Shown one piece after another: positions 2,858 through 26,000 of a stretch of DNA of 64,000 nucleotides (position 1 is its first letter; every line of letters starts with the position of its first letter). The stretch lies in NCBI GenBank assembly GCA_000004985.1, contig GG738893.1; one strand, given 5' to 3'. This DNA is from Naegleria gruberi (taxonomy: Eukaryota). The translations under genes were made by a program, and so were the position numbers. The notes under the pieces were generated by a model. It had not been told where the DNA came from, did no database searches, and was given only the letters and a program-made list of their open reading frames with translations.

Positions 2858-4169
2858 ATGGCCGAAATTAATTTACAAGAAGCTATTTCAAATGCCAGAT
2901 TAGAGGCACAACAATTGAAGGAAAAAATCAACGCACAGAGAAAAGTTATTAATGATGTGAACAGTAAGTGTTTTTATTGTGTGAGGTTTTTATAATTTAC
3001 TCTTGACATTTGACAAACATCATCAACATGTTGGAAATTTATGATGATATTTTATTATTAAAACTAAATAGTGAAGGATTTGGATGTTGCTGAAATTTCA
3101 CCTCTCAAATTAAAGGAACGAAGAGTGTTTAAAGGACACTCATCTAAAGTTGCTAGTTTAGCTTGGTCAAAGGACTCGAAGACAATTTTGACTGCCGGCC
3201 AAGATAGAATGTTAATTGTAAGTTTAGGAAGTGGTAATAATGATTTGATGACACTTTTTAGTTATGGGATGCTGTGACAACATATAAATTGAGTGCTATT
3301 CCTCTACAAGCTCGTGGTATTATGTGTTGCGATTATAGTACGAGTGGAAATTATGTTTGTGTTGGTGGTTTGGATAACATTTGTTCAGTTTGTAAGTAAT
3401 TATTATCAATAATTATGATGTTAATAAGTTTCGAATAGTTTCCCTTTCTGCTGTTACTCAACAATTACAAAACTCATCCAATGAATACAAGCCATTCAGG
3501 CAACTAGTAGGACATACAGGCTATTTGAGCTCTTGCAAATTTATTAGTGATCGTCACATATTAACTAGTTCTGGAGATCAAAGTTGTATTTTCTGGGATG
3601 TTGAAATGACTCACGCGGTGTCACATTTCCAAGTAAGTATTATTCAATATTAGAAATGTTAACTATTTAATTAGGAACATACTGGTGATTGTATGGCTGT
3701 TTCTGTTTCTCCTATTGAACAAAATGTATTTGTTAGTGGAAGTTGTGATGGTAGTTCAAAGTTGTGGGATGTACGTATGAATAAGTGTGTTGCCACATTC
3801 ACTGGTCATGAAGGTGATATCAATTCAGTTCAATTTTTCCCTAATGGAAATGCCTTTGCCACTGGTTCTGATGATTGTACTTGTAGATTGTTCGACCTTC
3901 GTGCTTCACGTGAGGTTATGACCTATTCAGATGATAATGTCAGAGAAGGTGTCACTAGTATTAGTTTCAGCAAATCTGGACGTGTTTTATTTGCTGCCTA
4001 TGAAGATAAGAAAGTTATTGCTTGGGATTCATTGAAAGGAACCATTTTACAAACTTTGGATGGCCTTCCAAATGGTCACGATAATCGTGTCAGTTGTTTG
4101 GCAGTTTCTCCTGATGGACACGCTCTTGCCACAGGTTCATGGGACATGACCATGAAGATATTTGCTTAA
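2858..4169 (+). CDS. Heterotrimeric G-protein beta subunit (WD40), 5 exons
   Basis: Model: join(2858..2963, 3072..3217, 3262..3391, 3439..3632, 3675..4169), totalling 1071 nt (357 codons). All four introns are GTAAGT...(T/A)AG and 42-108 nt long. The N-terminal coiled coil is [26 protein letters not shown] repeats follow with the Gbeta hallmarks [47 protein letters not shown] and [21 protein letters not shown]. Confidence 0.85.
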
Positions 4170-4289: not shown

Positions 4290-5576
4290 TTAATTTATTC
4301 TTAAAACTTTTCCAGCTCCAATTATTTGTTTTCCATTCATTAAGATGACTCTTCCTAGAATATCATTCTGTTCGAATGTGTGCAGATAACATGCCTTGTT
4401 TTCTTTTGTTATTAGTGGCTTTAGCCTTACTTCTGCAAAATCACCCTTTTTCAGTTTGTTTGGATAGGTTTCTAATTTCTGGTTCGTTTTTGGATTTACA
4501 GTTGCTAATATATCTTCTATTTTACAAAGGCATTGATTAGTGACACAATTATAAAGTTTGAAAGTGTATCCAACTTTGATTCCATTCTTTGGTTGATTCA
4601 TAATCTTTATCAAAGCTGTGAAAGATTCCACAGCTTTTTTTTCTGACTCCAGGTAAGCTTGGTCATGTATTATAAAATGTGTTTCAACATCTCGTACAGA
4701 AGCTTGTTTGATATTGATTCCACAAAACTCTCCACAAACAACTAGATCACGATGCTCATATCCTATTTCAATAGATTTCACCAGATGTGAACTGTCATCT
4801 CTGAAATAAACTTGTTGGTCCGTTTTAATCTTACCAGTTATTATTTTCCCAGCTACTACTGTGCCAATTCCACCGATTCTGTAAATTTGAAATATAACCA
4901 TCATTAGAGGTTTTTCAATCCATTCCTTTCTTGGTTCAACTTGAATTGCTTTTAATACAGATTCTAATGATTTACCCTTTGAAAATTCACCAGTAGTTGG
5001 TTTGAAAATGTTTTCATCCCTGTCATAACAAATAGGAATGAAAGGAACGTTTTTCCACAATAAAATAGTTTTCAATTTTGATCTAATTTCCTCCAATCTT
5101 GAATTCAATTCAATTACTGGTATTGTATCACATTTTGTTAAACAAACAACCAAATGGGTCAATCCAACAGCTGCAGCTATTTGTAAATGAGTTCTCATAT
5201 TTCCAATAGAATTATTAATATCCTTTTCAAATACTCCTTTTGTGACATCCACAACCAATACACAAATATTTGATAACCAAATAGCCTTCACCATACAATC
5301 GATTTTCTTCTTCTGTGTTGTAGATACATCCAACAAGGTCATTACTTCATTATCCTCCCTATATTGTTTATGAGAGAGTGCAATTTTTATCATCCCTTCC
5401 CGATCAGGATAGTATACATGAGATGCACACATTCTATATGCACCCAATCGATCGGTCTGATAATTATTCATATTTCTTAAAATTGTTCTCTCATCTGGAT
5501 TTATGATCTTTCCGACAAGTGTTGTTTTTCCAGACTTTTCAGCTCCAATGAATGAAATATTTTTTTGTTGCACCAT
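4290..5576 (-). CDS. EF-1alpha/Hbs1-family translational GTPase paralogue with a degenerate G3 motif (428 aa)
   Basis: Single ORF from the track. The G1 motif GAEKSGKTT and a G4-like TKCD are present. Where DxPGH is expected it reads LLDVSTTQKK. EF-Tu-like beta-barrel domains II and III follow (GTVVAGKIITGKI...). Confidence 0.7.
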   Translation of the reverse strand: MVQQKNISFIGAEKSGKTTLVGKIINPDERTILRNMNNYQTDRLGAYRMCASHVYYPDREGMIKIALSHKQYREDNEVMTLLDVSTTQKKKIDCMVKAIWLSNICVLVVDVTKGVFEKDINNSIGNMRTHLQIAAAVGLTHLVVCLTKCDTIPVIELNSRLEEIRSKLKTILLWKNVPFIPICYDRDENIFKPTTGEFSKGKSLESVLKAIQVEPRKEWIEKPLMMVIFQIYRIGGIGTVVAGKIITGKIKTDQQVYFRDDSSHLVKSIEIGYEHRDLVVCGEFCGINIKQASVRDVETHFIIHDQAYLESEKKAVESFTALIKIMNQPKNGIKVGYTFKLYNCVTNQCLCKIEDILATVNPKTNQKLETYPNKLKKGDFAEVRLKPLITKENKACYLHTFEQNDILGRVILMNGKQIIGAGKVLRIN

Positions 5577-5898
5577 TTTCTTTTTTTTGAATTTAATTTT
5601 TTATTTCAAAATTATTAAATTTTACATCTTCTGATCAGCGAGTTCAAACTTGAAAGTTGTAATTAACATATTTTTCTGTAATAGTGTGAAGTTGTAATCA
5701 CCTCTCCCTTATAACTTTCTTATTTTACTCATCCAAGATCAATTCTCCATTAACATTAGAAGTACAGTAGTATCTGACAACAAACGATTTATAAATTTAA
5801 CAACTTAATTTATGAGGAAGTTTAAGCTGCGGGGTGCAACATCACTAAGTAATTCCATTTCATGTAGGAGTTTCTTCAAATTGTATAGAACTAAATAA

Positions 5899-6790
5899 TT
5901 AAGGTTTAAAATCTATATAAATATCTCCACTGAAAACCTGTTTACCAAATACATTTCTTTCAACAGTTTTAAATAACGTAGTAGTTTTACGTAACAGAAT
6001 TGATTCAATATCTATATCCTTTAAAAGTGCTGCTTCTTTACATTTTTCATCCACAATAGCACCTTTATGAAGTAAACATTCTATTATCTCAATATAATAG
6101 CCATTGATTGCAGCATAGAGAGGAGAAACATCACCTTGGTTGACCTTAATTTCTTTTGCTTCCAATAATAATTTGACAATATCTAAATATCCTCTTTTGC
6201 ATGCTGCATAAAGTGGCGTTGTAGAAATACGATAATCACTACTATCGTGTGGTAATTCACTATAGACATATTCATCTTTCATTGGTTCCTAAAAAAAGAA
6301 TAAACTATTAAGGATATTTAATTGGGAAAGTACTTACATCATAATTGTAAATAGTTCTGTTGACTTCAATATGCCTACATTTTAATAGCAATTTAACCAT
6401 TTCATAATCACCTGTTTTACAAGCATAATACAATGGAATGTCATGTTTATCAAAATGTTGAAATATAGTACACATTCTATAACAACCAAAATTTACATTA
6501 ATCCCATCAACTGTTAATAATAACTTTACAATATCTCTAAATCCTCTGGTGTAGGCAGCAAATAGAGGTGAACAACTATCTGTATAACAGTGCACTCCAT
6601 AGTTTACATCAATTCCTTCCACAGCTAACAATAATTCCACAATTTCAATATTTCCTTGTACACAAGCAGCAAATAATGGAGAATAATAAGCATCTCGACC
6701 ATTAATATCAACATCATCACTACCACCACTTGATAATATTAATTTAACACTCTCGACATCACCCGTTGTACAGGCTTCAAACAGAGACAT
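5899..6790 (-). CDS. Ankyrin-repeat protein, 2 exons (about 280 aa)
   Basis: Model: join(complement(6338..6790), complement(5899..6288)). On the minus strand the donor is GAT|GTAAGT and a 49-nt intron ends at TTTTTTTAG, with the frame preserved (..NYD|EPMKDEYVY..). The protein has repeated ANK motifs such as SPLFAACVQGNIEIVELLL and TPLYAACKRGYLDIVKLLL. Confidence 0.7.
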
Positions 6791-7810: not shown

Positions 7811-10800
7811 ATGGCAGACAATACACAGGAAGGAGATTTGGGTTTTGAAGTAGTGGATGCTAGTAGTGCTGCTGCTATTGATGATGATCCACAGCAACAA
7901 CAAGAACCGGAGACTATCGAAGAGGGATCCTTGATGGTGGAAGACTCTTCATTGGTGGAAAGTGTTGGTGTATCAGAGGAATTAGTGAGTGGTGAGGCTA
8001 TTGTGGTCGATTCCAACAATAATAATACACAAATATCTTCTTCATCATTATTATTAAATACAGAATCATCAAAATTAGATAATAGTAGCTTAAAATTACA
8101 AAAACCATCAATTCAACCAAGAGTAATTCCTGGACCTCCAATTTATGATCCGAACAAATTTCCCATCATGGATGGTGGTCATGGAGGTGTTTTAGTTACC
8201 GGAATGGCAGCAAGTGTTTCATCTTCTTTGAGTTCTGGTAATGTGATTTCTTCAATTTTAGGTGCATCAAAAGAATTTTCATCAGTGTTACCATTCCAAT
8301 TTCCTTTCGATTCGTCTTCAAATGAAAAATTCACTCTCAGCAATGTTTATCAAGATAATGCTGAAAAGTTCAAGAAATTCAAATATAGATCAGTTTGGGG
8401 TGCTAATAATTTATTGGCCTATTGTTGTCAAACTCATGTAATGATCTTTGATCCAGTTTCTATGCAACAAGTAACTTCATTGTTTGGACATAGACACGTA
8501 ACAACTTGTGTTGAATGGTGTGAAATGTCAAAATCAAGAGGAATTGAAAGAGGTAATACTAATATTGTTGCTAGTGGTGATGAAGGAGGATGTATTATTG
8601 TGTGGGATTATAAAAAAGGAAGAAAACTTTGCAGTTTTGCTGAGGACTATGGTAATACCAAGAAGAGTATTGTACAAATCAAGTGGTTGAATGGTGATAA
8701 TGTTTACTTACTTTCTTTAGCTGCCAATAATGTCTTGTCCTTGTGGAATGTTCAAAGTAATACTAGAATTTGGGATCTTGAATTCCCTGACACAATTACA
8801 GGATTTTCTTTGGATCCATTTACTTTAAAGTCATGTTGCTTACCAAGTGAAAGTGGATGGTCCTATTTTATCAATGATATTAATATTAAGAAGAAACCAA
8901 TCGATATTCAAAGAAGACTTCATGGAAGTATTGACAAAAAGACAGGAGCCACTCAAACCTCATTGAAAGATTTTATTTGTTCTCCACACACTCGTGATCA
9001 ATTTTATGTTGTGACCAAGAAGGAGGTTACAACATTTGATTTAGCCATCAAACAAACAATTCATGGAAAGCAACTCAAGGGAGGAAGAGCAGACTTCCAA
9101 ACATTATATCCTATTGAATCTGAACCATCTGTTTTTTACTCTCTTCATGATGATGGAACTGTTTGTGTTTGGGAATATAATGGTGAAAAGTTTGAACCAA
9201 ATGTTTGTGATGTTGTTAGAGGATCTAAACATGGTGCAGATAGACCTGGATTACTTTACGGACTTTCAATTTCTCCAATCGATCACTCAAAAGTAGCTGC
9301 TGTGAGTGCAGATGGTAAGATTTGGATTTGGAGAGTCAACCTTTCACACAAAATCAAGACACCACCACAAGAAGCTAAGCCAGTTGAAGAACAAGTACCA
9401 AGCTCAAAAATCAAAGTTAACACCAAGTGGATGCTTGAAGGATTGGCTGAATATACAGGATCTGTAATTAGTAGTATCAAAGTTTCTCCATTTGATGATA
9501 AAGTAGCAGTCGGAACAATTAGTGGGTTACTATTGGTATACGATTTACTTACTGGTAACGTGGTAGTTAAACATGATGTATTTAATAATTCTCCTGTATT
9601 GGGTATTAGATGGTTTGGAGCAAGTTCTGTTCTCTGCTTCTCATCTTCAGTCTATGAAAAGAAGAAGGATAGAAAAAGTAATGAATTGAGAATTGTCAAT
9701 CTCGTTTCTGGTAAACATACCACAATTAATGTTAATCGTGAGGATCAACATAAGAAGGAAGAATCCAAAGCTGGAGGAATTAAGGGTATCAGAATTAGTA
9801 ACAGTTACAAATATCTTGTAATCATTTTACAGGACAGACCAATAGAAGTATGGAGATTGGACACTCTCAAGCTCATTAGAATGATTCCATTCTCAAATGT
9901 GACATCTCTTGAATGGGTTCCACTTTCTAAACATCACCCAGAACGTGAATTATTGTACTTTACAACTACTGATGGATCTTTGCATTTCTATAAGGTCGAA
10001 AATTATAAGGTCGAACCAGATGTTAAAAAACCAAAGGTATTTGTAAATACCATTACTGCCCTAGCTTGGAAGAATGATAGACTTGTTTCTGGTGATGTTA
10101 CAGGTACCATTACTGTTTGGGATTTGCAACACAAAAAAACCAAAACAATTCAAACACACAGAGGTTTAGTTAAGAAGATCAGTGTAAGCAAGGAACATAA
10201 TCACATTTTGGTATTGTTCAATGAGGGAGACTTTGGTATTTGGGACTTGGATCAATATGCCAAGGTTGCCAATTCTCCTCCACATATCAAGGCCGTTGCC
10301 TCAGACTGGTCTAGAGGAAATTATCCTGTTGTTGCCACAAATAGTGGTTCCATCCTTGTATTTGATATTCAACTTAGTACTTGTAACACTAATGTATTGT
10401 TCCATACTCGTCTGGATCACCTTAAGAATCCTTGCTCACTTAAATCAGATGAAGCTCAATATTTTAGAGCTCTCATCGAAAATAACAAGCTTCCATTTGA
10501 TGATATGGTTGATGAAAACACAATAATAGATGAACCAAATACATACAGAAATTGTTGTGGAGATGTCATTGATAATAAGAAAGTCAAGGAGCTTTATGAA
10601 AAGGCTCTCGACCACAGATATTTACTTCCTCAAAACATGGTGGTTAAATTGAAGAATCCAAGTACAAATACTGCTGAAAGATGCTTGATTGCTGCTGAAT
10701 ACTTTGGTGATAAGATTGCCTATCAATTCTGGAAACTTGCTATTGAATTTTTGGGCAAATTCAGCAAGCAAAATATCAATCCTGCTGATATTCAAAAAGA

Positions 10801-11944
10801 GGCTCCACCTGCAGAAGAGGACCACTTCTTCACAGAACAAACAGAACTCGAAAGATTTGATTCAAACGTATGCTATAGATCATCTCTTCCTTCCACTTTT
10901 GATTTATTAAGAGATAATGACTCTGTTAGAAATGAAGAAATGAAGATTTTACAACAACATGATCAAACTTTACAACACAAGATTAAATCTGGAGCTCCAA
11001 CAGAACAAATTCAAGATTTATTCTCGCTAGTTGCCAGAAGTGAAAGTGAATTATTGCAAAAGGATCAAGCAGTTAAAACCTTACTTCAAACACCACTCGA
11101 CAGCAAAAACTTGTATGCCAACTTTTTACATGCTACTGTATTAGCAGCATCTAACTCACCATCTCACTTTAAGGAAACTGTACAATTCGTTGCTAGTTCT
11201 TTAATATCTTTAAAGAAGGACAATGATATTGAATTTGGTGTACAATTACTTTGCTCGATAGGTGAGGGATTGAAGGCATGTAGAATTTTACAAGATTTTG
11301 ATATGTGGGAAAAGGCAGCAAGAATTGCAAAGAGTATTCTCCCAGAACATGAGTCCATAATTGTACTCACCAAGTGGGCAGATTATTTACAGAGCAATAA
11401 CCAATTGTTGAAATCTATTGGTGTATGGATGAGTTTGGGACTATTCAAGGAAGTATTGGATCTTCTCCATAAATCAGAACTCGATGATATTGCCTCACTC
11501 TTCACAAAGGCCTATGACGAGTATTTACCTCATCTTCCACTCAATGAACTCCACAGATATTTTGTTTTGAGAGTTTCTTCACCATCCAAACTAAGTGAAC
11601 CATTGTACAGCAGTAGTAAGAGTCATGATGATTTTGAAATGACATGTAGAAAGCTCAAATACTTTGTCTACCAGCAATATGCAGTTTTCCTTGATAAGAT
11701 TGGATGTAATGAATTGGCGGATAATTACAAAGTTTTAATTGATGGAAAAGATATTGGACTAACTCTTCCACCTAATAATTTATCATCTCAATTACCACCA
11801 GAAGAAAGTAACAACTCTTTGGATTTGAACCGTCAAGAAAGTTGGGTAGTTGTTGATTCTGATAACAATCAACCACCACCAGAAGCCTCTCAAATCTCAA
11901 CTGATATACCATCTGAAGACATACCAACCTCTGCAGAAGAATAA
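7811..11944 (+). CDS. Large WD40-repeat protein (1377 aa) with an N-terminal low-complexity region and a C-terminal alpha-helical region
   Basis: Single ORF from the track, ATG at 7811. It has multiple WD-like repeats (ASGDEGGCIIVWDYKKG, HDDGTVCVWEY, SADGKIWIWRV, GDVTGTITVWDL, NEGDFGIWDL). The N-terminal 150 aa and the C-terminus are S/Q/N-rich. Orthology was not established. Confidence 0.65.
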   Translation: MADNTQEGDLGFEVVDASSAAAIDDDPQQQQEPETIEEGSLMVEDSSLVESVGVSEELVSGEAIVVDSNNNNTQISSSSLLLNTESSKLDNSSLKLQKPSIQPRVIPGPPIYDPNKFPIMDGGHGGVLVTGMAASVSSSLSSGNVISSILGASKEFSSVLPFQFPFDSSSNEKFTLSNVYQDNAEKFKKFKYRSVWGANNLLAYCCQTHVMIFDPVSMQQVTSLFGHRHVTTCVEWCEMSKSRGIERGNTNIVASGDEGGCIIVWDYKKGRKLCSFAEDYGNTKKSIVQIKWLNGDNVYLLSLAANNVLSLWNVQSNTRIWDLEFPDTITGFSLDPFTLKSCCLPSESGWSYFINDINIKKKPIDIQRRLHGSIDKKTGATQTSLKDFICSPHTRDQFYVVTKKEVTTFDLAIKQTIHGKQLKGGRADFQTLYPIESEPSVFYSLHDDGTVCVWEYNGEKFEPNVCDVVRGSKHGADRPGLLYGLSISPIDHSKVAAVSADGKIWIWRVNLSHKIKTPPQEAKPVEEQVPSSKIKVNTKWMLEGLAEYTGSVISSIKVSPFDDKVAVGTISGLLLVYDLLTGNVVVKHDVFNNSPVLGIRWFGASSVLCFSSSVYEKKKDRKSNELRIVNLVSGKHTTINVNREDQHKKEESKAGGIKGIRISNSYKYLVIILQDRPIEVWRLDTLKLIRMIPFSNVTSLEWVPLSKHHPERELLYFTTTDGSLHFYKVENYKVEPDVKKPKVFVNTITALAWKNDRLVSGDVTGTITVWDLQHKKTKTIQTHRGLVKKISVSKEHNHILVLFNEGDFGIWDLDQYAKVANSPPHIKAVASDWSRGNYPVVATNSGSILVFDIQLSTCNTNVLFHTRLDHLKNPCSLKSDEAQYFRALIENNKLPFDDMVDENTIIDEPNTYRNCCGDVIDNKKVKELYEKALDHRYLLPQNMVVKLKNPSTNTAERCLIAAEYFGDKIAYQFWKLAIEFLGKFSKQNINPADIQKEAPPAEEDHFFTEQTELERFDSNVCYRSSLPSTFDLLRDNDSVRNEEMKILQQHDQTLQHKIKSGAPTEQIQDLFSLVARSESELLQKDQAVKTLLQTPLDSKNLYANFLHATVLAASNSPSHFKETVQFVASSLISLKKDNDIEFGVQLLCSIGEGLKACRILQDFDMWEKAARIAKSILPEHESIIVLTKWADYLQSNNQLLKSIGVWMSLGLFKEVLDLLHKSELDDIASLFTKAYDEYLPHLPLNELHRYFVLRVSSPSKLSEPLYSSSKSHDDFEMTCRKLKYFVYQQYAVFLDKIGCNELADNYKVLIDGKDIGLTLPPNNLSSQLPPEESNNSLDLNRQESWVVVDSDNNQPPPEASQISTDIPSEDIPTSAEE

Positions 11945-12247: not shown

Positions 12248-13357
12248 ATGGGCATCAAGAAAAAATCCACTACCAAGAAGAAATCCAATCAAACCAATAA
12301 GAGAAAGCGTGATGAAATTTCCAAGAGAGAGGCCAATCCAGCTGATGAAAACAAGATCCATGACATTCCAACTGTAAGATACATCTTTGGGAACAGAATT
12401 TGCAACAATGTAGCATTTGTGGAAGATGTTTATTGCAATTTTAAGCCATATGATGTTGCTTTGATCAGGGCTCTCTTCAAAGCTCAAGAACAAAAACACC
12501 AAACGCAAGATTTTAATGAAAGTTTGATCAATAATGTAGGGAAGGATGATGATCATGATTGTGATATTGCTTTGTTTGAGTATTATGACACCACAGACAA
12601 CAAAACTAAACTTTATCAAAATAGAAGAAAGGCAGTTAGTATTACACTTTCTCAAAAACAAAGCAATGTTTATTTTTTTTCTAAATGTGCTAATTACAGT
12701 GCTTTTACAACAAAGCCAATCAAAGCTTGCTTTGAATTTGATGATTACAGAGTTTACAAATGTAAGGAAAGCAATTCCAAGCAGGCTGGTAAATTCTCCT
12801 ACCGAACTATTTCATCTACCTTGCTTAAACCAACATGTGAATCAACTTGTGGTTGGATTTTAATGAATCCAATCAATAGATTTGAAATTATTGATGTTAT
12901 ATTTGATATTGAAATGTATAATGAATTGAAAGATATTCCAAATATTGATTTACAACAGAGAAAGATTGATGATGGAGAGAATACTGATAAACCAATCACC
13001 CTAACTGAAATTCCTATTATCAATGACAATCGATACGATAAAGACGATCACATTACCGCATGTATTGGTGATTTAACCAATGATCAATCTGTATTTGAAT
13101 CACAAGTCAACCATAACAATCAGGTTATAATGTCTATCCCTGATTCGCCTCCACAAACTACTCAACCATCTGCAAATCCTAGTCCTGCTCAGCCTTGTGA
13201 AGAACACAATAATGAGCAGTACAATTTGCTTCCTGCTTTGAGTTCCAAAAAGCCACTACTTGATGAAGTCTTACTTGATATGAAATGGTGTAGCTATGAA
13301 GAAGAGTTCCGACAAGAAGCCACTAGTTTTAATAATTACTATGATGATAGATTATGA
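12248..13357 (+). CDS. Hypothetical protein (369 aa) with a Lys-rich, probably nuclear-targeting N-terminus
   Basis: ORF from the track. It starts MGIKKKSTTKKKSNQTNKRKRDE. No recognisable domain. Confidence 0.5.
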   Translation: MGIKKKSTTKKKSNQTNKRKRDEISKREANPADENKIHDIPTVRYIFGNRICNNVAFVEDVYCNFKPYDVALIRALFKAQEQKHQTQDFNESLINNVGKDDDHDCDIALFEYYDTTDNKTKLYQNRRKAVSITLSQKQSNVYFFSKCANYSAFTTKPIKACFEFDDYRVYKCKESNSKQAGKFSYRTISSTLLKPTCESTCGWILMNPINRFEIIDVIFDIEMYNELKDIPNIDLQQRKIDDGENTDKPITLTEIPIINDNRYDKDDHITACIGDLTNDQSVFESQVNHNNQVIMSIPDSPPQTTQPSANPSPAQPCEEHNNEQYNLLPALSSKKPLLDEVLLDMKWCSYEEEFRQEATSFNNYYDDRL

Positions 13358-14503: not shown

Positions 14504-15925
14504 ATGCAACCCATTCGCAAATCAAAAGTAGGCTCAGCCTATTCTATTGGAGACATGTCTAATTGGAAAGTTGTAACTGCTAATTCGCCTTCAATTATCA
14601 AGGAATCACCCCCAATGGAAGTTGATAAATCAATACTAGTACCTACAACAACAACAATATCGGAACAACATGATCAAAAACAACAACAGGATATTGTCTA
14701 TGACTCGAGTGATAGCTCGGATGAAGGAGTGATGGATAGTGCCGATAGTAGTACAGAGGAAAGATTTCCAAGGCCTACACGATCTCAAACAAAATCAAGA
14801 AAAAGAACAACCATGGATAAGAATACAAAACAAAATGTAAATTATAAACCACCTGCAACTGTAGTGGATGATCCAACTGCAGAGGTTAGAAAAAACAAAT
14901 TGGCCTTAATGAGATTTTCTGATATTTTCCAAAGAGAAGAGGAAGACACAAAGGATGATAAAGCCATTACAGTAGATAATGGAGATATTATTTTGGGATC
15001 TGAGGATAGTAGTGATGATGAACGTTTTACAGCTGCTCTTCAGGCTGGAATTAATCGTTCCAATCCCAATAAGAAGCAAAAACTTACAGTTGAAAAAAGT
15101 CAACAACCTTCATCATCTTCTGAAGTGAGCACTCCTAAAAATTCAGCTTCCTCTTCAACTAATTCAAGCACTTTGAAAAAGAAGGCAGCAAAACAGGACT
15201 GTGTACTGGTACCTAATTCTGCTCTCTTCAGATTTGTTTGTTCTTGCTCAACTGTAAAGGAGATTAGATACGAATTACAAGAGGATTTTGAGGATGAAAA
15301 ACATGTATCCTCCAGAAAAAAGCACAATATGAAATCATCATCAAGGAAAGGAAGATTGAGCACAGAGGAGGTTAATTTTATAAGGAAATATTACAACATG
15401 TCAAAGGATATTCGTATTGCAAAATATCATATCCCTTTAAACAAGTTCAAAAATGTGGAATCATTGGATGATGGAATTATTAGAACGTGGGAGGATTCTA
15501 ACGAAGATGAAGTCAATTTATCAAATATCAAACACTTTGTCTCTATAATTTTAGGAAGGAGTTTTGATCTCATTTCTTCACAATGGAAAAAATTTGAAAA
15601 GAAGGATGATATTTGGCACAGAAATTTTGTGATCTATCTTGAACAAATGAGATATCACTTTGAAGAAGCTCCACAAACTCCAACCCGCCATGCTGATCAT
15701 GACGAAGAAATTATTGAGATTTTCCAAAGTATTCTTTTACAAATGAAGAAATATATTGATCAAGTGAACGCTAAGAGAAGTGGAAAAGACTTTGATAAGG
15801 ATGAAATGAAAAAGATGGAAGACTTGCTGAGTGAGCATTATTACAGATTGGACGAGTACCTCCAATTTTACAATGAAGAGCTTCACGATGCATTATGGCG
15901 ATGCTCTTTAAATTTAATGAAATAG
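14504..15925 (+). CDS. Hypothetical acidic Ser/Asp-rich protein (473 aa)
   Basis: ORF from the track with the ATG at 14504. It has acidic low-complexity stretches and a C-terminal conserved-looking helical region (HYYRLDEYLQFYNEELHDALW). Confidence 0.5.
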   Translation: MQPIRKSKVGSAYSIGDMSNWKVVTANSPSIIKESPPMEVDKSILVPTTTTISEQHDQKQQQDIVYDSSDSSDEGVMDSADSSTEERFPRPTRSQTKSRKRTTMDKNTKQNVNYKPPATVVDDPTAEVRKNKLALMRFSDIFQREEEDTKDDKAITVDNGDIILGSEDSSDDERFTAALQAGINRSNPNKKQKLTVEKSQQPSSSSEVSTPKNSASSSTNSSTLKKKAAKQDCVLVPNSALFRFVCSCSTVKEIRYELQEDFEDEKHVSSRKKHNMKSSSRKGRLSTEEVNFIRKYYNMSKDIRIAKYHIPLNKFKNVESLDDGIIRTWEDSNEDEVNLSNIKHFVSIILGRSFDLISSQWKKFEKKDDIWHRNFVIYLEQMRYHFEEAPQTPTRHADHDEEIIEIFQSILLQMKKYIDQVNAKRSGKDFDKDEMKKMEDLLSEHYYRLDEYLQFYNEELHDALWRCSLNLMK

Positions 15926-15933
15926 AAGAGAAT

Positions 15934-17076
15934 TTATTCTTGTTGCTTTTTCTTCTTCTTTCTATAATGTTTAACAAATGATTTCTTATCCAGCACCTTA
16001 ATTTCATTCCCCTCATGTTTAAACAGGTCATTATCGAGCATATATGATGGTTTTTCTTGCTTAAATTGAGCAAGATATGTAGAAAGGTAATTGGCACGTG
16101 ACTCATAAACAGGATAATCATCAGATTCCACCAAGTGTCTTCTCTTTGAGATGACAGTAACTCTTGCTCCATCATAATCCGTACTAAATGATTTCAAAGA
16201 ATAAAATTGACAAATGGCATGTGTAAGAAAACGTCTATGACCATCAGTTAATACCAAAACCATAAAATTACCCTTCAATCTATCTACTAATTCCGATTGT
16301 TGCTCAGCTGTATTTTCTTCCTTATTTTCATTTTCTTCATCTATAACTTTTCTTTGATTAATGAATGGAATGAGAATATCTTCCATTAAGGTCACAAAAT
16401 CTACATCATACTGTCTATTGAGGGCTTCCTTTGCTTGTTGTTCAACCAATTTATGATATCTTTGATGAGCAGTGAGCGACTTGAGGGAAGGTGCCTTCTT
16501 TTCTTTCATTTGATAACCTTGTTCTTCAAATTCTCTCAAAGCTGGTTCAATTACATTTCTAAATTCACTAGTTGTCCAAATTTCTTCGTGAGGAATAACA
16601 AATAAACTCTTGTAATCCTCCTCAGTGGCATCACCATGAAATATATTTGCATCTTTCAAATCTTTTAAATGTTTTTTAACAACTTGATCTTGTTGTACTT
16701 GAAGATTCTTTTTTCTCAACTTTTTCTTCTTATCAACTGTACTGGAAAATGTCATCAAATTTGAAGAAGGTGGGAATGAATGGGCTTGTTCAATATTTTC
16801 AATTTCAATATGATGAGATGCAACCTCTGATGAAGTAACAACATTTGATGGTTGTTGTGCTGATGAATTACCTCTATTCATCCTTCTTCCACCTCTCAAT
16901 ACAGTTGAGTTACGATCAATAGTAGCATCACCACTCAAATAACTTTCGGAATCAAAGAAAATATCATCCTCCGATGTACCACTCAAGCCTGAACTAGAAT
17001 AGTCAACATTTTGGCTTGGAAGTGTAGTACCCAAGCTATTGTGTTGAATAATAATACGTTTTGGTCTTTGACTCAT
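15934..17076 (-). CDS. R3H-domain-like protein (about 380 aa)
   Basis: Lies within minus ORF 15934..17208. The likely start is MSQRPKRIII, with the ATG at the complement of 17074-17076. The C-terminal region GNFMVLVLTDGHRRFLTHAICQFYSLKSF fits the R-x3-H motif of R3H nucleic-acid-binding domains. Confidence 0.45.
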   Translation of the reverse strand: MSQRPKRIIIQHNSLGTTLPSQNVDYSSSGLSGTSEDDIFFDSESYLSGDATIDRNSTVLRGGRRMNRGNSSAQQPSNVVTSSEVASHHIEIENIEQAHSFPPSSNLMTFSSTVDKKKKLRKKNLQVQQDQVVKKHLKDLKDANIFHGDATEEDYKSLFVIPHEEIWTTSEFRNVIEPALREFEEQGYQMKEKKAPSLKSLTAHQRYHKLVEQQAKEALNRQYDVDFVTLMEDILIPFINQRKVIDEENENKEENTAEQQSELVDRLKGNFMVLVLTDGHRRFLTHAICQFYSLKSFSTDYDGARVTVISKRRHLVESDDYPVYESRANYLSTYLAQFKQEKPSYMLDNDLFKHEGNEIKVLDKKSFVKHYRKKKKKQQE

Positions 17077-17238
17077 TTTTTTTACTTCTTTTTTTAGCTT
17101 CAAATTGTAAAAGAAAATTAATCTTGAAATTGAAGTGGTGGAATACAAGACAATGTCAATGAGAAACAAGTCAAAATGAGGGTTTACACTTGTGGTGCAA
17201 CACTTCATGTGACAGGTTCTGGTTCATTTTACAAAAAA

Positions 17239-18385: not shown

Positions 18386-20935
18386 TTAATCATCATTGCC
18401 AGCATACTTATTGTACACAGAACCCAGGAAGCTCTTTGGAATTTCCATTTTGTCCAGCCTTACAGGTTGTGGTTTGTTGTGAGGTCTGGAAAATGAAGAG
18501 CAACAAGCCCAAATAATATAACTAACTTGCACACTAAGCCATCTAGCATGTCCTCTGGAATCAACACATTCTGCCATTAATTCTTTTCTATTTCTATCAG
18601 AGCTGAACATTTTCATGAGAGAAGCTGAATCATTATTATTGGTGGATTTTAGATTTGAAGGAGGAAGATCAATACCTGGAATCTTTAAAGAATAGACATT
18701 GACTTCTGGGAGGTTAGGTAAGTGCTTATTAATTTGAGTTACAGCAAATCTGATAATGAAGAGAAGACCCAGTCTCGGGTATGTTGGGAATTCCACGTCT
18801 GGAATACCTTCCAACTTTTCTAATTCTTGTAAAATCTTTGGGATGTTAAATACTACATTATGTTGACTGCTAATTGTAACATTTTCAACATCTTTCTTTT
18901 TGAAAGAAATAATGCATTGTTTCAAAGAATGAATAAGCTCCTTGAAGGTTAATGGTGGGATAAATCCAACATCCATTGACATTCTCTCGTTTCTATTTGG
19001 CAGCTCAATAAGAGTCTTTTCAATAAGCATTAACAATGAAGGAATTGATATATCTAACGGAATGACCATGTCTAGTTCATCAACATGACTTGAAATATAC
19101 TCAAAGATCTTTAAAATAATGTTAGTCAGTGTCATACTACTAAAGTTAGGACACTCAATGTTTGGTTCATCCAATGTTTCAAACATCTCTGCAATAATTT
19201 CAAAAGCAGATGCAAAATTAGTTTCACCAAATCCTAAATCAATCTTCTTTTCGGTGAAATTCTTCATAAAGAAGCATCTTGATGCAATTCTACACACTGA
19301 GGATGGTTTCTCAAATGCTTTCACACCAGGAAGCCACACTTTTGGATCTTGAACTCTATCAATCTTCTTGATTAAATGTTCAAATACCATAAACTTGGAA
19401 AGTTTGAATAAATTCTTCTTTAAAATCTTTGAGATTGCAATCTCAGTTTCCTTTTCCTTTTTTTGTGTCTTGATATTTGATTTTAAGAAGATACCATGTC
19501 GACCTTCTTCTGTATTGAATTGACCATAATAAATGGTTGAAAACATTGTATAGGGGAATCTTCTTGCTCTCTTGTATGAACTCTCTTTCTTTTTTGAATT
19601 GTATGCGAAAGTGTAGATTGCTTGATCTGTTAAACATAATAATCTTTCTTGGAATTGACCTCTGTGATTAATCTTATTTACTGTCCATCCATACTTGAAT
19701 TCCTCAGCCTTCTTTGCTTGTATTCCTTCACTTTTTTCGTAATCTGCCCAATACTGATTGATACTCTCAATGCAGTTTTGTTTTTCTTCTTCTTTTAATT
19801 GGTAAAAGCTCTCAGAGTTTGAAATGATTTCTAATAAAGGATCCACGGTTTTAAAATTCAATGCAGCATAGTTTGTGAGATCCTTCATCAATTCAATAAG
19901 ATCGTCTTGTTCCTGATTTGTTATCTGTTCTAATTTTACAAATTTCTTTCTCATCATTTCAAATTTACAAGCAATTCCAATAGCTTTTGAAATTTCTTTT
20001 GGAGAAACATGACCAATGTGATATCTATAAACACCATAAATATACAAGGTCTTTTTACAAATATAACAAAAACCAGAATCTGGAGGTTTTGGTTTTCTAT
20101 CATCTTCACTGTTTCTAAACACTATTGTATCAACGGCATCTGCAATTTCATTTGCTTCCAAGCCATGTTCATGAGTTACAAGTCTGAAAGCACTGATTAG
20201 TGAAAGAATGGAATAACTACATTCCAGACTGCAAAAGTTACTTAGACAAAGGTCAACATTTCCTGCCTTTTCAAATGATTCCCAATCCACTTCAATCTTG
20301 AGGTCATAACTTGGAAGCAACATTTCACCCTTAATAGAATTTTGAGAAATTGAAATTGATCTTGTGATAAACTCTTGATAGTATTCTCTATTAACTCCTA
20401 GAAGAGAACCCAACTTTAACATGAAAGAATTACTGCCAACATCTCCCATAAGGGAAGGTCCTTCATCAAATACAACAGCAATTTGTAAATTTCCATCAAT
20501 AAGAGTTAATGTTGTAGAGTTAATATCAGATATTACCGAGTACTCTTCATCACATCGTTGATAATCTAATCCATCAGCAACAAATAATGTCTCGTTCACC
20601 AGCTCTTCTTTCAAGAATGGTTTTGCTGCTACCGTTATCTTTTTAACCTTTTGAGCAAAGGATGTTCTTATATTCTCGTAATCTTCTCTCTGTAATAAAA
20701 ACTCTATAACATCTAACAAGTGTCCGAGAATGAAAAAGCCATCCCAAACTTGAAGATGTTCCAGAGAATTTTCAAAGTTATTACTAAATTGTTTAATACT
20801 TGAAAAATTAACCTCTACATCTATCAGTTCTCCAATAAGGGACATAAGCTTGTCTTTAACAGCTGGTATAATCTCTCCCTTAATTTTATCCTCCATAATT
20901 TGAGCCTGAAGGTTAACTTTTACACTCATCTCCAA
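18386..20935 (-). CDS. Large hypothetical protein (849 aa)
   Basis: Single minus ORF from the track. It looks like a globular protein with no motif I can assign with confidence. Confidence 0.55.
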   Translation of the reverse strand: MEMSVKVNLQAQIMEDKIKGEIIPAVKDKLMSLIGELIDVEVNFSSIKQFSNNFENSLEHLQVWDGFFILGHLLDVIEFLLQREDYENIRTSFAQKVKKITVAAKPFLKEELVNETLFVADGLDYQRCDEEYSVISDINSTTLTLIDGNLQIAVVFDEGPSLMGDVGSNSFMLKLGSLLGVNREYYQEFITRSISISQNSIKGEMLLPSYDLKIEVDWESFEKAGNVDLCLSNFCSLECSYSILSLISAFRLVTHEHGLEANEIADAVDTIVFRNSEDDRKPKPPDSGFCYICKKTLYIYGVYRYHIGHVSPKEISKAIGIACKFEMMRKKFVKLEQITNQEQDDLIELMKDLTNYAALNFKTVDPLLEIISNSESFYQLKEEEKQNCIESINQYWADYEKSEGIQAKKAEEFKYGWTVNKINHRGQFQERLLCLTDQAIYTFAYNSKKKESSYKRARRFPYTMFSTIYYGQFNTEEGRHGIFLKSNIKTQKKEKETEIAISKILKKNLFKLSKFMVFEHLIKKIDRVQDPKVWLPGVKAFEKPSSVCRIASRCFFMKNFTEKKIDLGFGETNFASAFEIIAEMFETLDEPNIECPNFSSMTLTNIILKIFEYISSHVDELDMVIPLDISIPSLLMLIEKTLIELPNRNERMSMDVGFIPPLTFKELIHSLKQCIISFKKKDVENVTISSQHNVVFNIPKILQELEKLEGIPDVEFPTYPRLGLLFIIRFAVTQINKHLPNLPEVNVYSLKIPGIDLPPSNLKSTNNNDSASLMKMFSSDRNRKELMAECVDSRGHARWLSVQVSYIIWACCSSFSRPHNKPQPVRLDKMEIPKSFLGSVYNKYAGNDD

Positions 20936-21388: not shown

Positions 21389-22894
21389 TTGAATTTTGAT
21401 TTTTACATCCATCAAAAAATGAGAAGAAGCTTGTTATTGAGGAGAAAGAATGTTTGCTCTTCCGAATTTAATTTAATGAAGAGTGCTATTACTTGCACTG
21501 CTACTTCTTCTAAAATGTCTTTCGGAACAAGCCAATACAATTTTGCAACAAGGAGAGTTATTGCTAATGGTGATAATACAGAGGATGAGTTGTCGAGAGA
21601 ATTATCACCTCTCTATCCAAAAATTAAAACAACAAGATTATTTACACTTTTATATAGTGGACAAATGTTTTCGGATTTGGCACTATCAGATGCAACCTTG
21701 CAACGAGTTAAAACAATTTTGAATGATTCTCTCTTCCTAGGAGTGGATAAACCAAGTCATAGATTTATTGATGAGGAAATTAAAACCAGAAGACAAAAAG
21801 TTCCAATAGTAACAATTATGGACTTGTTATCGTATGATGAAAAGGAAATTGCAGCTTTGGATAATCAAATGCAAATATATCAACAAACAACTAAAGAGCT
21901 TGCACCTCAGGACAAATGGAATTATTGTGACGTTCTCATTAAGAAAATTAATCACTCACTGGAAAGCAATGAAATAAGACGTGTGGATCCACTTATGAAA
22001 TTATTGACAAACATTTTGAAATCATTAGGAGTTGAATCACCAGAAGAACACCCAACAATTTGCTATTTAATGAACAAAAGACTGCTTCACGATGCAGATA
22101 GAGAATTTTATAAGGCAAACGAAGAACTGTTGCAAACAATGAGGAGTATGCCAAAAGATGTTTTTGATAATGACAAAGATGTAAATAGAAAGAAGGTAGT
22201 CGACTCTGCAAAGGCAGAACAATTAGCAAAATTATTAATTGGAGATTTCAAATTTAAGAGGGCAATTTACATGATGCAATTATCTGCAGAGGTTTACGAT
22301 ATTATATTGGAGAAGCACAGAGAGCACTTTACTCAAAAAGAAATTGAAATTATCAAATCAGATCGCGAAAGAAGATACTACTGTCTCATTCAGCTACATG
22401 CTTTTGTATCTTCTTTGGCAAGTGAATATGCTCATGTCTGTAGAAAAGACTCTAGGGAATATTATGTAGATAATGGAAATGCTTTATATTTGCTAATGAC
22501 TAGAGATTATTCAATTGATGCCAGGAAAGAAGGAAAGCTCAAGTCAGCTTTCAGAAAAGAAGCCAGTATTAATGCATTTGCTGTAACCAAGTATATTCGT
22601 CATTTGAAAAAGAAGTCACCAGAAATTGAGAAACGTTATCCAATGGTTAAAATTGTTGGACTCAATGCTACCAGATCTCTATTACCACACAGATTTAGAA
22701 ATCTTGCACTCGTACTTGTAGCATTGGGATTGATCTATTTATGCTATCTGATAGTTCTCTACATTTTGGATATTAGAAAAGCAGATAGAGAAATTGCAGA
22801 AGCAAAAGCTCAACGAAGACGAGAAATGATTGAAATTCTGAAACCTCAGACTGAAACTGAAAAACAACTTTCAAATGATGACGATGAGTTTTAA
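21389..22894 (+). CDS. Hypothetical protein (501 aa or less) with one C-terminal transmembrane segment (tail-anchored topology)
   Basis: ORF from the track. The C-terminus has the hydrophobic span NLALVLVALGLIYLCYLIVLYIL followed by a charged tail. The true start may be the downstream Met (MKSAITC or MSFGTSQ). Confidence 0.45.
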   Translation: MNFDFYIHQKMRRSLLLRRKNVCSSEFNLMKSAITCTATSSKMSFGTSQYNFATRRVIANGDNTEDELSRELSPLYPKIKTTRLFTLLYSGQMFSDLALSDATLQRVKTILNDSLFLGVDKPSHRFIDEEIKTRRQKVPIVTIMDLLSYDEKEIAALDNQMQIYQQTTKELAPQDKWNYCDVLIKKINHSLESNEIRRVDPLMKLLTNILKSLGVESPEEHPTICYLMNKRLLHDADREFYKANEELLQTMRSMPKDVFDNDKDVNRKKVVDSAKAEQLAKLLIGDFKFKRAIYMMQLSAEVYDIILEKHREHFTQKEIEIIKSDRERRYYCLIQLHAFVSSLASEYAHVCRKDSREYYVDNGNALYLLMTRDYSIDARKEGKLKSAFRKEASINAFAVTKYIRHLKKKSPEIEKRYPMVKIVGLNATRSLLPHRFRNLALVLVALGLIYLCYLIVLYILDIRKADREIAEAKAQRRREMIEILKPQTETEKQLSNDDDEF

Positions 22895-23008: not shown

Positions 23009-26000
23009 ATGGTCAACATTAGCTCGGAGAAACTTCATCAAACACAACAAGATACTGAACATGTGAGAAATATTTGTATTATTGCTCACGTTGATCACGG
23101 AAAAACAACATTATCAGATTTTTTAATATCCAGTAATGGAATCATCAGTAGTAACTTGGCAGGAAAGATGAGATACATGGATAGTACAGCCTACGAACAA
23201 GAAAAGAGAATTACAATGAAAAGTAGTGCTATTAGTTTATTATATAAAGATAAAAACGATGAAAATTCGGATGAATATATAATTAATTTAATCGATTCAC
23301 CAGGGCACGTGGATTTTAGTAGTGAAGTGAGTACAGCAGCAAGACTTTCCGATGGATGTTTAGTGTTAGTGGATGTTGTTGAAGGTGTTTGTACACAAAC
23401 AAAGACAGTTCTTGAACAAGCCTTCAGAGAAAATATTAAACCATGTCTAGTTTTAAATAAGATTGATCGTTTGATACTTGAAAAACAAATGACACCAATG
23501 GAAGCTTACAAACAAATGTTACACATTTTACAACAAGTCAACGTATTATTGACAACTTTTGTTACAGTTCAATTATTCAAGAAAATTAATGAACAAGATG
23601 AAAAGAAGGAAGATACAAAGGAAGAGGAAACAAAGGATCAATCAAAGCAACAATATGACAATGTTTTTGATGATAATGAAGTTGACAGTAATGACTTTTT
23701 CTCACCATCAAAGGGTAACGTTTTGTTTGCTAGTGCCTATGATGGTTGGGGATTTAGAATTAATGATTTTAGTGAAATTTTCTCAAAGAAGATGGGTATG
23801 AATAAGAATACACTTCAACAAACACTTTGGGGTGATTTTTATTTGAATCCAAAGAAGAAAGCAATCTCAAAAAAGCCAATCAAAGATGATCAACCAAATA
23901 TGTTTGTTCAATTCATTTTGCAAAACATTTATAGTGCATACGATTGTTTACTGATTAATCGTGATGAAGAAAAGATTAAGAAAATGATCCAAGCTTTAGA
24001 TTTGAATTTATCTAAAGCATTCTTGTCAAAGAATGATCACAAGAGTCAGCTTAAAACATTGATGAATCAATGGTTACCAATGTCTGATTCCATCTTATCT
24101 ATGGTTGTTAGCAGGTTACCAAATCCAAAAGAAGCTCAAAAGGAAAGAGTCTTAGACCTTATTCCAGAATTAAAGACAATCAAGGATAAAACCAATGAAA
24201 CTAAGAAATCAAACCAAGTCAATGCTGAAATTAGAACTCAAAGAAGAAAGCTGAAGAAGAATTTAATGCAATGCGACAAGAGTGATAATGCTGAAGTGTT
24301 GATTTTCGTTTCAAAGATGTTCGAAGCTGATGAAATACCAACCCAAGGTGGTTCAGCAACTAAGATAGATCAAATCCAACTTCAAAGAGAAAGATTGAGA
24401 AAACTCAGAGAAGAAAGATTAAAGCAAAAGGAGCTCGGAGAAACTTCCACAACAGAAACTGACTCTGCTCAACCTACTGAAGGTTCTGAATCAACAGAAA
24501 CAAATGAAGAAAATAACCAAGAGAATGATACTGAAGCAAGCAAGCTTGTTGCTTTTTGTAGAATTTTCAGTGGTACAATCAGAGTTGGACAAACTTTGCA
24601 TATTCTTGGCCCAAGATACAATGCTTCCAATCCTAATGAAGATCGTATCGAATTCAAGGTTGATAAGCTCTTCCTTTTGATGGGTAGAGGTCTGGAATGT
24701 GTTGATAGTGTGCCAGCTGGTAATATTTTCGGTTTGGGTGGTGTTGGTAAGCATATTTTGAAAACTGCCACTATTTCATCAAGCACTCATTCACCAATCT
24801 TCTCGGCAATGTATGTCCAATCTATTCCTATTGTTAGATTTGCTATAGAACCACAAAATTTGATGGATATGCCAAAATTGGTTAAGGGTCTCAAACTCTT
24901 GAACCAAGCCGATCCATCTGTTGAAGTACTTGTACAAGAAACAGGTGAACATGTTATTGTCACTGCTGGAGAAGTCCATGCCGAAAGATGTATAAGAGAT
25001 TTGAATGAAAGATTCGCCAAGGTTCCAATAACTGTTTCTCCACCACTTGTCAGTTTCAGAGAAACTATTATTGAACAACAAAAGGAACCAGTAATAGCCT
25101 CTAAGAAAACTGGTAACAAGAGATGGACCATCAAGATTAAGGCTATTCCACTCCCTGAAAATATTGCCCACTACATCGATAAACATAAGGAAGATTTCAG
25201 AGCTTATTTCTCTAACGACTCTAGAAGAACATCCAAGTCTGTCTTTGTTACCTCTGAGGTTATTGATGGATTGAAACAACAATTTATTGATGCAGGAAAG
25301 CAATGGGAAACTGAGTGGGATAATGTGTGGTGTTTAGGTCCAAGAAGAATTGGTCCAAATGTACTCTTGAATCACATTCCAGATTACAAAACACCAAACT
25401 TTGAACCTTTGCACAAACAAGTTGCTGACATGTTGGCAGAAAATGAAGACGAAGAAACAACAGCAACAGAGGAACCAGTTGAAACATCTGAAAGAATAGA
25501 ATCCCTTAAACAATTTGATCACAGTTTTATTTCAGGCTTCCAACTTGCTACAAACTCTGGTCCATTGTGTGACGAACCAATGTATGGCGTTTGTTTCTGT
25601 ATTGAAGATGTAGTTTTCGAAACTGAGGGAATTCATGACGAAGACTTTGGTGGTCCATTTACTGGACAAATCATGAGTTCAATGAAGACTGCTTGTAGAA
25701 AATCCTTTGATAACAGTCAAAGAAGATTGGTAGAAGCCATGTACGATTGTGAAATTCAAGCTACCAATGAAAGTGTTGGTAGTGTTTGTGATGTTTTGAG
25801 AAGAAGAAGAGCCAAGATTTATTCAGATGATATGGAGGAAGGAAGTGGTCTCTTCATTATCAAATGTCACTTGCCAGTTGCTGAAAGTTTTGGATTTTCA
25901 GAAGAATTAAGAACAAGAACAAGTGGTGCTGCTCAACCTCAAATTGCATTCTCACATTGGCAAATTCTCGATGTGGATCCATTCTTTGTTCCAACCACTG

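Follow-up and report, generated by a model that had tools for sequence, protein, structure and literature searches.

A candidate eEF1A-derived pseudo-GTPase family in Naegleria

Translational GTPases (trGTPases) are among the most conserved proteins, and their non-catalytic paralogues have each revealed new biology. To our knowledge, Ski7 is the only well-studied trGTPase paralogue that has abandoned catalysis. In Saccharomyces cerevisiae Ski7 the departure in switch II is limited to a His to Ser substitution (plus Val to Thr), and the switches are intact and still grip the γ-phosphate (PMC4509514). Atkinson 2015 presents Ski7 as a yeast-specific duplicate of Hbs1, and one sentence of the same paper remarks that Naegleria gruberi has several versions of eEF1A that are highly divergent (PMC4342817). 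In organisms with both EF-1alpha and EFL, the divergent EF-1alpha is thought to keep only auxiliary roles, as discussed in Kamikawa et al. 2013 (PMC3699394), and the EF1-family trGTPases of giant viruses keep all functional elements of the G domain and are active (PMC6582330). Here we describe an eEF1A-like gene at positions 4290..5576 (minus strand) of a 64,000-nucleotide stretch of N. gruberi DNA (contig GG738893.1, assembly GCA_000004985.1), referred to below as the window. We read its product, with a probability of roughly 0.7, as an eEF1A-derived pseudo-GTPase: a putative nucleotide binder that would neither switch nor cycle and would no longer carry aminoacyl-tRNA (aa-tRNA).

The coding sequence (CDS) is complete in a single exon of 428 codons and a stop, with an ATG start, and corresponds to NAEGRDRAFT_71873. 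Residues 36–428 match at 100% the NCBI/JGI model XP_002673134.1, which has 393 aa, is labelled only ‘predicted protein’ and begins at Met36 (nucleotides 5469–5471), so that the P-loop encoded by the full open reading frame (ORF) is left out of the public model. All motif positions given here refer to the full ORF and to the minus strand.

The P-loop or G1 motif, GAEKSGKTT (residues 11–19; 5520..5546), keeps GxxxxGK[ST], with the Asp of GHVDSGKS replaced by Lys14. The G4 motif TKCD (residues 147–150; 5127..5138) keeps the guanine-specifying Asp, its Asn being changed to Thr. G3 and switch II are replaced by DVSTTQKKKIDC (residues 83–94; 5295..5330), which has neither the Pro-Gly nor the catalytic His. 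In the phmmer alignment this segment is collinear, with a one-residue insertion, with D-A-P-G-H-R-D-F-I-K-N-M of eEF1A, and in the alignment to yeast eEF1A, DAPGHRDFIKNM gives way to DVSTTQKKKIDC while the P-loop, TKCD and both β-barrels stay in register, LLDVSTTQKKK occupying the place of DAPGHRDF. The original prediction of an EF1-family paralogue that retains its P-loop and a G4-like TKCD, and whose switch II has lost Pro-Gly and His and with them the catalytic G3, is thus borne out by a collinear alignment. It had allowed that an unrecognised intron might supply a canonical DxxGH; the end-to-end alignment with yeast and mammalian eEF1A (residues 6–424) contains no gap able to hide one.

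The loss extends further than that prediction recognized. Its account of G3 was right, but it missed three other changes: the Thr of RGITID, which serves Mg2+ and the γ-phosphate, is Lys64 in the G2 equivalent REGMIKIA (residues 59–66; 5379..5402), the canonical Ser of G5 is Cys183 in the equivalent ICY (residues 182–184; 5025..5033), and the P-loop Asp is Lys14, so that the G domain is more degenerate than had been stated. The P-loop Asp position in trGTPases helps to coordinate a monovalent cation; the equivalent residue of Ski7, Asn277, is treated in the Ski7 structure paper (PMC4509514). The switch I equivalent (residues 29–62; 5391..5492) is shortened and unconserved, with 3% three-way identity in the family. 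Where canonical eEF1A has DxPGH with its catalytic His and the G2 Thr, this protein therefore has DVSTTQKKK and Lys64 instead. When it was compared with 21 canonical eEF1A and aEF1A (e/aEF1A) sequences, the near-invariant positions that survive numbered 28/84 in the G domain, 22/45 in domain II and 17/35 in domain III. With half to two-thirds of the invariant residues lost, delivery of aa-tRNA appears very unlikely.

The fold itself seems to have been retained. Pfam GTP_EFTU (PF00009; 43.7 bits against a cutoff of 26.5) and GTP-eEF1A_C (PF22594, domain III; 64 bits against 27) both passed, and GTP_EFTU_D2 (PF03144, domain II) scored 26.5 bits, just under its cutoff of 30.3. An AlphaFold2 (AF2) model built from a 63-sequence alignment reached a mean predicted local distance difference test score (pLDDT) of 84.3 and a predicted template-modelling score (pTM) of 0.85, with only residues 29–62 of switch I disordered (pLDDT <50). 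It shows at high confidence the barrels of both domain II (residues 216–312, including YRIGGIGTVVAGKI; 4641..4931; pLDDT ~90) and domain III (residues 313–428; 4293..4640). The NCBIfam EF-1_alpha equivalog TIGR00483 failed (156.9 bits against a cutoff of 540.1), which places the protein as related but far outside the equivalog. In Foldseek searches the best matches were GTP-form aEF1A–Pelota complexes (3wxm and 3vmf; template-modelling (TM) score 0.84–0.85), followed by ribosome-bound eEF1A (TM 0.82–0.84); Hbs1L and eRF3a also superpose on the model (TM 0.82–0.83), and GDP-form e/aEF1A reaches a TM of ~0.45. The match to GTP forms would fit a protein locked in a compact conformation, without proving it.

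Sequence comparison places the protein with eEF1A. Using phmmer against the PDB, residues 6–424 were collinear with residues 9–436 of yeast eEF1A at 116 bits, with an identity to eEF1A of ~29%, as against 70 bits for Hbs1L and 68 for eRF3a. Subfamily hidden Markov models (HMMs) gave 168 (eEF1A), 169 (aEF1A), 136 (Hbs1) and 129 (eRF3), scores that are indicative only because the models were built from unequal numbers of sequences. We also built a neighbour-joining (NJ) tree of 62 taxa and 424 columns with 200 bootstraps, the outgroups having been labelled by PDB search (Hbs1: P0231, P0250, P0264 and three relatives; eRF3: P0253, P0195 and P0270). Four Naegleria proteins were monophyletic (96%) with the environmental protein P0150 as their sister (96.5%); Hbs1 and eRF3 formed a clade in 100% of replicates, and the family was united with that clade in 0/200. 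The eukaryote-type insertion ‘G.FE......’ after switch II is present in the family and missing from the archaeal reference.

Taken together, these comparisons assign the family to the eEF1A type in affinity and not to the Hbs1/eRF3 type. They do not support the proposal of an Hbs1 or Ski7 affinity, and since the family clades with eEF1A-type sequences and never with Hbs1 and eRF3, the Ski7/Hbs1 analogy fails. Nor does the motif pattern resemble that of Ski7, as had been suggested: Ski7 loses only its His (to Ser), whereas the Naegleria protein has lost DxPG and the His together with the P-loop Asp and the G2 Thr. The Ski7 C-terminal domain (PDB 4ZKD/4ZKE) is likewise an EF1-family domain that lacks the catalytic His, with a proposed GTP-bound, active-like conformation (PMC4509514), but Ski7 derives from Hbs1 and carries an N-terminal region that binds the exosome and Ski; the Naegleria proteins lack such an extension, fall outside the Hbs1/eRF3 clade and have wholly lost G2 and G3. 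Canonical e/aEF1A shares with our protein its three-domain architecture, its length, the best sequence and structure matches, the P-loop and (N/T)KxD, and differs in possessing the G2 Thr, DxPG, catalytic His and P-loop Asp.

The gene belongs to a small family with two members in N. gruberi, two in N. lovaniensis and one in N. fowleri, together with one sister from an environmental eukaryote. The N. gruberi paralogue, NAEGRDRAFT_71823, is 74% identical and lies on the same 337-kb scaffold, outside the 64-kb window; its model starts only after switch II. The others are N. lovaniensis C9374_011189 (P0123), N. fowleri FDP41_000494 (P0326) and N. lovaniensis C9374_001949, which was added by a second profile search and is 65% identical to the N. 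fowleri protein. Beyond these members, word-indexed and exhaustive searches returned nothing above the generic eEF1A level (~29% identity). As the N. fowleri protein escaped the word-indexed profile search, a census of the family from that kind of search is incomplete. N. fowleri and N. lovaniensis are sister species, and the 29% identity between P0326 and P0123 therefore implies at least two old paralogue lineages.

Conservation of the degenerate G3 in orthologues and paralogues had been named as a check, and it revealed a motif common to the family: in each of the five Naegleria members with sequence there, DxPGHRDFxKN is replaced by [DNY]-V-S-[ST]-x(0-1)-[QKR]-K-[KR]-K-[IL]-[DN]-C. All Naegleria members covering the relevant regions keep GxxxxGK[ST] and have lost the G2 Thr. 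Their P-loops read GSEESGKST in N. fowleri and GSARVGKSS and GSPNSGKST in N. lovaniensis, and the G2 Thr is replaced by Q in N. fowleri and by A in the N. lovaniensis members. The P-loop Asp position varies across the family (K/E/N/R/L) and is basic in two members (Lys14, and Arg in one N. lovaniensis protein). Both N. gruberi copies have TKCD at G4; of the remaining members, two read NKCD and one, from N. lovaniensis, reads NMCD. The G5 Ser, which is Cys183 in our gene, is present in the other family members. In a ranking of segments by conservation among three deeply diverged members (three-way identity of 19%), the segment over switch II had 9/13 similar positions against 37% overall, making it the fourth-best non-overlapping segment, at the 94th percentile; the P-loop segment ranked in the top ten, and switch I was essentially unconserved. 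Persistence of the switch II motif across deep lineages indicates a constrained replacement, not debris. The environmental sister (P0150/P0340), on a compact 17-kb contig, is more degenerate, with GPSLSGKGT, ITQIPFRKC and TKID.

Selection could be assessed through a second N. gruberi strain, represented by an environmental assembly (ENA ERZ929261, locus L001), in which the same gene is intact beside the same G-protein β-subunit (G-beta) gene. The two coding sequences differ at 22 nucleotides; 12 codons change synonymously, and 8 residues of the protein are altered. The ratio of non-synonymous to synonymous rates (dN/dS; Nei–Gojobori method, NG86) was 0.20 overall and 0.11 for codons 36–428, within which it was 0.26 for the G-domain codons 36–215 and 0.057 for domains II–III. 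The synonymous excess was significant for the whole gene (p=5.5e-4) and for codons 36–428 (p=1.5e-5), and the switch II codons and all nine P-loop codons were identical between the strains. Codons 1–35 carry three non-synonymous differences (V2W, N6I and T31M) and no synonymous one (Fisher p=0.049; dN/dS ~2.4, from tiny counts). Two N. fowleri assemblies showed zero differences in the gene. By its lost catalytic and switch residues, its otherwise confident G fold and its dN/dS of 0.20, the protein would fit the class of pseudo-GTPases that bind nucleotide but are catalytically inactive, and its sequence points to descent from an eEF1A-type elongation factor that is fast-evolving yet selectively maintained.

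Between species the gene has diverged far more than its neighbours. The arrangement WDR11, eEF1A-like and G-beta, with the last two convergent, has the same order and orientation in N. lovaniensis as in the window; N. gruberi–N. lovaniensis identity is 86–88% for G-beta and 74% for WDR11, as against ~28% for the eEF1A-like gene. In N. fowleri the gene has other neighbours, a glycosyltransferase upstream and SCAR downstream. A canonical intron of 46 nt (GTAAGT...AG) splits it at YKIG|GVGTV, where the G-beta-linked N. lovaniensis gene is interrupted too and where the N. gruberi gene is intronless. Purifying selection within the species, seen together with extreme interspecific divergence and repeated duplication, is compatible alike with relaxed or shifting constraint and with an arms race.

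We propose that the protein has given up the GTPase cycle and kept the scaffold. The family retains the parts that hold a guanine nucleotide (the P-loop GxxxxGK[ST], [NT]KxD and the G5 Ser) and has lost all those for γ-phosphate sensing, coordination of Mg2+ and the monovalent cation, and activation of water (the switch I Thr, the P-loop Asp, DxPG and the His), with a conserved Ser/Thr and poly-Lys motif standing in their place. GTP or GDP would be bound constitutively as a structural cofactor, as G1, G4 and G5 suggest; to judge from the motifs, GTP would be bound but not hydrolysed. The protein would then sit permanently in a closed, eEF1A-GTP-like three-domain shape and, not cycling, might work as a binding protein or adaptor that does not switch. 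The Ser/Thr and poly-Lys segment may offer a new surface for interactions; as the canonical switch II His contacts the sarcin–ricin loop, RNA phosphates are a possible ligand. Such remodelling is more radical than that of Ski7, with both switches gone and a new basic motif installed while the nucleotide loops and compact shape are kept, and would offer a natural experiment in what an eEF1A scaffold does without its GTPase cycle. The family is present both in the human pathogen N. fowleri and in the model N. gruberi.

Several observations weigh against this interpretation. The conformation in the AF2 model may merely reflect the training set. The P-loop is missing from the annotated model, which begins only at Met36; taken with the changes in codons 1–35, this means that the P-loop segment of N. 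gruberi could be untranslated or relaxed. The NMCD of one N. lovaniensis member and the GKGT of the environmental sister suggest that some members may be losing even nucleotide binding. As to descent, the NJ placement lies among long branches prone to long-branch attraction and its deeper nodes are without support; the eEF1A and aEF1A HMM scores are equal, and the tree resolves only shallow nodes.

A first alternative is that the protein remains an active GTPase of non-canonical type, in which the Lys or Arg of the P-loop and the poly-Lys switch II replace the monovalent cation and the His in cis, hydrolysis being ribosome-independent or differently activated. The replacement motif is strongly conserved and not random, a basic residue occupies the cation-coordinating P-loop position in two members, and G1, G4 and G5 are retained; Kowalinski et al. 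left the same possibility open for Ski7 (PMC4509514). We nevertheless consider it unlikely, as the residue at the P-loop Asp position is not conserved (K/E/N/R/L) and every member lacks both the G2 Thr and the DxxG Gly. These two residues bind Mg2+ and the γ-phosphate in essentially all P-loop GTPases.

The start codon bears on a second alternative, in which translation from Met36 yields a scaffold without P-loop or nucleotide that is purely structural and eEF1A-like in shape. The JGI/NCBI model begins there, that of NAEGRDRAFT_71823 later still, after switch II, and the three strain differences in codons 1–35 are all non-synonymous. Met1 (5574..5576; context AAAAAGAAAATGG) is, however, preceded by an in-frame stop nine codons upstream with no other ATG in between, and has the context AAAATGG, with A at −3 and G at +4, making it the most likely start. 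No strain difference falls within the nine P-loop codons, and a P-loop stands at the same position, among the ten best conserved segments, in the N. fowleri and both N. lovaniensis members despite ~30% identity. We therefore rate translation from Met36 alone as rather improbable. In the second strain the frame is open for 28 codons further upstream, giving a 456-aa ORF call (P0121). The region upstream of the start (promoter and 5′ untranslated region; 5577..5860, minus strand) is rich in indels, with differences of 53, 18, 8 and 6 bp and ~6% substitutions between the two N. gruberi strains.

A more speculative idea, which we hold to be just as doubtful as the truncated scaffold, is a decoy or sensor modelled on eEF1A and driven by conflict: a GTP-locked protein of eEF1A shape whose poly-Lys segment would dock on RNA (the sarcin–ricin loop or a tRNA-like ligand), or which would trap pathogen effectors that target eEF1A. 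It would explain jointly the purifying selection within the species, the divergence between species (28%, against 74–88% for the flanking genes) and the repeated duplication, a combination that, as noted, relaxed or shifting constraint could also produce. If true, translation-factor mimics of a new functional class would exist in a free-living or pathogenic amoeba.

That the protein is an mRNA-surveillance factor of Hbs1, eRF3 or Ski7 lineage, working with an eRF1- or Pelota-like partner, is highly improbable. It broadly resembles a trGTPase paralogue lacking the catalytic His, the model superposes on Hbs1L and eRF3a, and the best structural match is aEF1A bound to Pelota. But sequence scores favour e/aEF1A by 30–45 bits, no bootstrap replicate joins the family to Hbs1 and eRF3, and the N-terminal extension found in Hbs1, eRF3 and Ski7 is not present, the P-loop starting at residue 11 with the in-frame stop nine codons before Met1. 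Ski7 is moreover a yeast-specific duplicate of Hbs1 (PMC4342817) whose switches are intact (PMC4509514). A decaying pseudogene (raised in the original prediction) or annotation artefact, which the extreme divergence from eEF1A, the lost catalytic motifs and the sub-threshold Pfam domain II might suggest, is already effectively refuted by an ORF of 428 codons that is intact at ~32% GC (the AT-rich composition of the window, at which 428 stop-free codons have a chance of ~2e-15), an intact and syntenic copy in the second strain with dN/dS of 0.2 and a significant synonymous excess (p<1e-3), and intact homologues with a conserved replacement motif in three species.

The eEF1A-derived pseudo-GTPase that we favour has relatives in kind among divergent eEF1A copies. 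The copies noted by Atkinson 2015 very probably include NAEGRDRAFT_71873 and NAEGRDRAFT_71823, although a search of that paper's main text turned up no account of lost motifs, of the replacement motif, of selection or of orthologues in other Naegleria species (PMC4342817). Among the sequences scanned from our exhaustive and word-indexed searches, 58 other eEF1A-like proteins lack DxPGH, so His-less eEF1A paralogues are not rare. These proteins, of ~430 aa and numbered within P0142–P0267, are mostly of DTPGRxxY type (for example, DTPGRRKY) from environmental eukaryotes; Anaeramoeba flamelloides contributes one (‘translation factor’, KAJ6242876.1), and a few have no PG at all. Unlike the Naegleria family, most of these proteins keep DxPG and lack VS[ST]-KKxK-[IL][DN]C, and only P0150/P0340 groups with Naegleria; this large and heterogeneous population, from environmental assemblies and A. 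flamelloides, appears to be uncharacterised. The view that such a paralogue would be unexpected in a protist of this type is thus not borne out by the remark of Atkinson 2015 (PMC4342817) or by these 58 proteins. As divergent His-less eEF1A copies in protists were already known and are not new as such, the value of the finding is moderate; the family itself is undescribed in the literature we searched, where these loci are not mentioned by locus tag or accession, where ‘pseudoGTPase’ was not found in connection with eEF1A, and whose trGTPase papers do not use the term.

The divergent EF-1alpha of dual EF-1alpha/EFL organisms offers a further parallel, being a long-branch eEF1A copy thought to have given up elongation, with the difference that it is the sole EF-1alpha copy there, whereas the Naegleria proteins are extra paralogues; the available text of Kamikawa et al. 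2013 makes no mention of G-motif loss (PMC3699394). We saw no EFL gene in the 64-kb window, and no test for EFL was made in the Naegleria genomes. Giant-virus EF1-family proteins are similarly divergent and amoeba-associated, but their G domain is intact (PMC6582330). A viral origin was considered and set aside: the sole match in an IMG/VR profile scan was a GTPBP1-like giant-virus ORF with a canonical DLAGH and 29% identity over domains II–III. Matches of the exhaustive search with long N-terminal extensions, considered as possible Hbs1-like relatives, were rejected when Pfam resolved them as canonical eEF1A fused to kinases, gag, VWA and other domains through gene-model artefacts, and P0122 proved to be a tandem-duplicated eEF1A artefact.

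The analysis also corrects public gene models, two of them truncated at the N terminus and one fused to a glycosyltransferase. XP_002673134.1 and XP_002673029.1, for the two N. gruberi members, start at Met36 and after switch II, respectively, and keep the P-loop and degenerate switch II out of sight for those who consult the databases. In FDP41_000494 (898 aa; N. fowleri locus L003, 6508–9486) the eEF1A-like part is linked with an EryCIII-like/GT1 glycosyltransferase; independent ORF calls treat them as separate, so it is probably an annotation fusion, although it may be a genuine one.

The neighbouring G-beta gene (WD40) has exons at 3071–3277 and 3693–4169 (plus strand) of the window. Between the two strains it shows one substitution, with a 3-bp indel outside the listed ORFs; set against the 22 differences of the adjoining eEF1A-like CDS (dS 0.048), this makes G-beta unusually invariant even at silent sites. 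On the other side, a WDR11-like protein is encoded by a 1377-aa ORF (7811–11944, plus strand) whose N. lovaniensis counterpart (locus L002, 1405–5622) extends the conserved block. Between it and the eEF1A-like gene lie two ORFs (5899–6282 and 6308–6790, minus strand) that look ankyrin-repeat-like by eye from their translations; in N. lovaniensis the matching interval is occupied instead by a DUF4419 gene together with an ORF of 181 aa.

Further along the window, the long ORFs at 12248–13357, 14504–15925, 15934–17208, 21389–22894 and 26318–29144 have no Pfam match at E≤1e-5. An 849-aa ORF with hSac2- and myosin-TH1-like matches lies at 18386–20935 (minus strand) and an RGS-domain ORF at 29278–30873 (minus strand). 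A second, unrelated gene of the translational-GTPase family, a 1049-aa ORF at 23009–26158 (plus strand), encodes an EFL1/Ria1-type GTPase with GTP_EFTU, EFL1, EFG_III and EFG_C domains.

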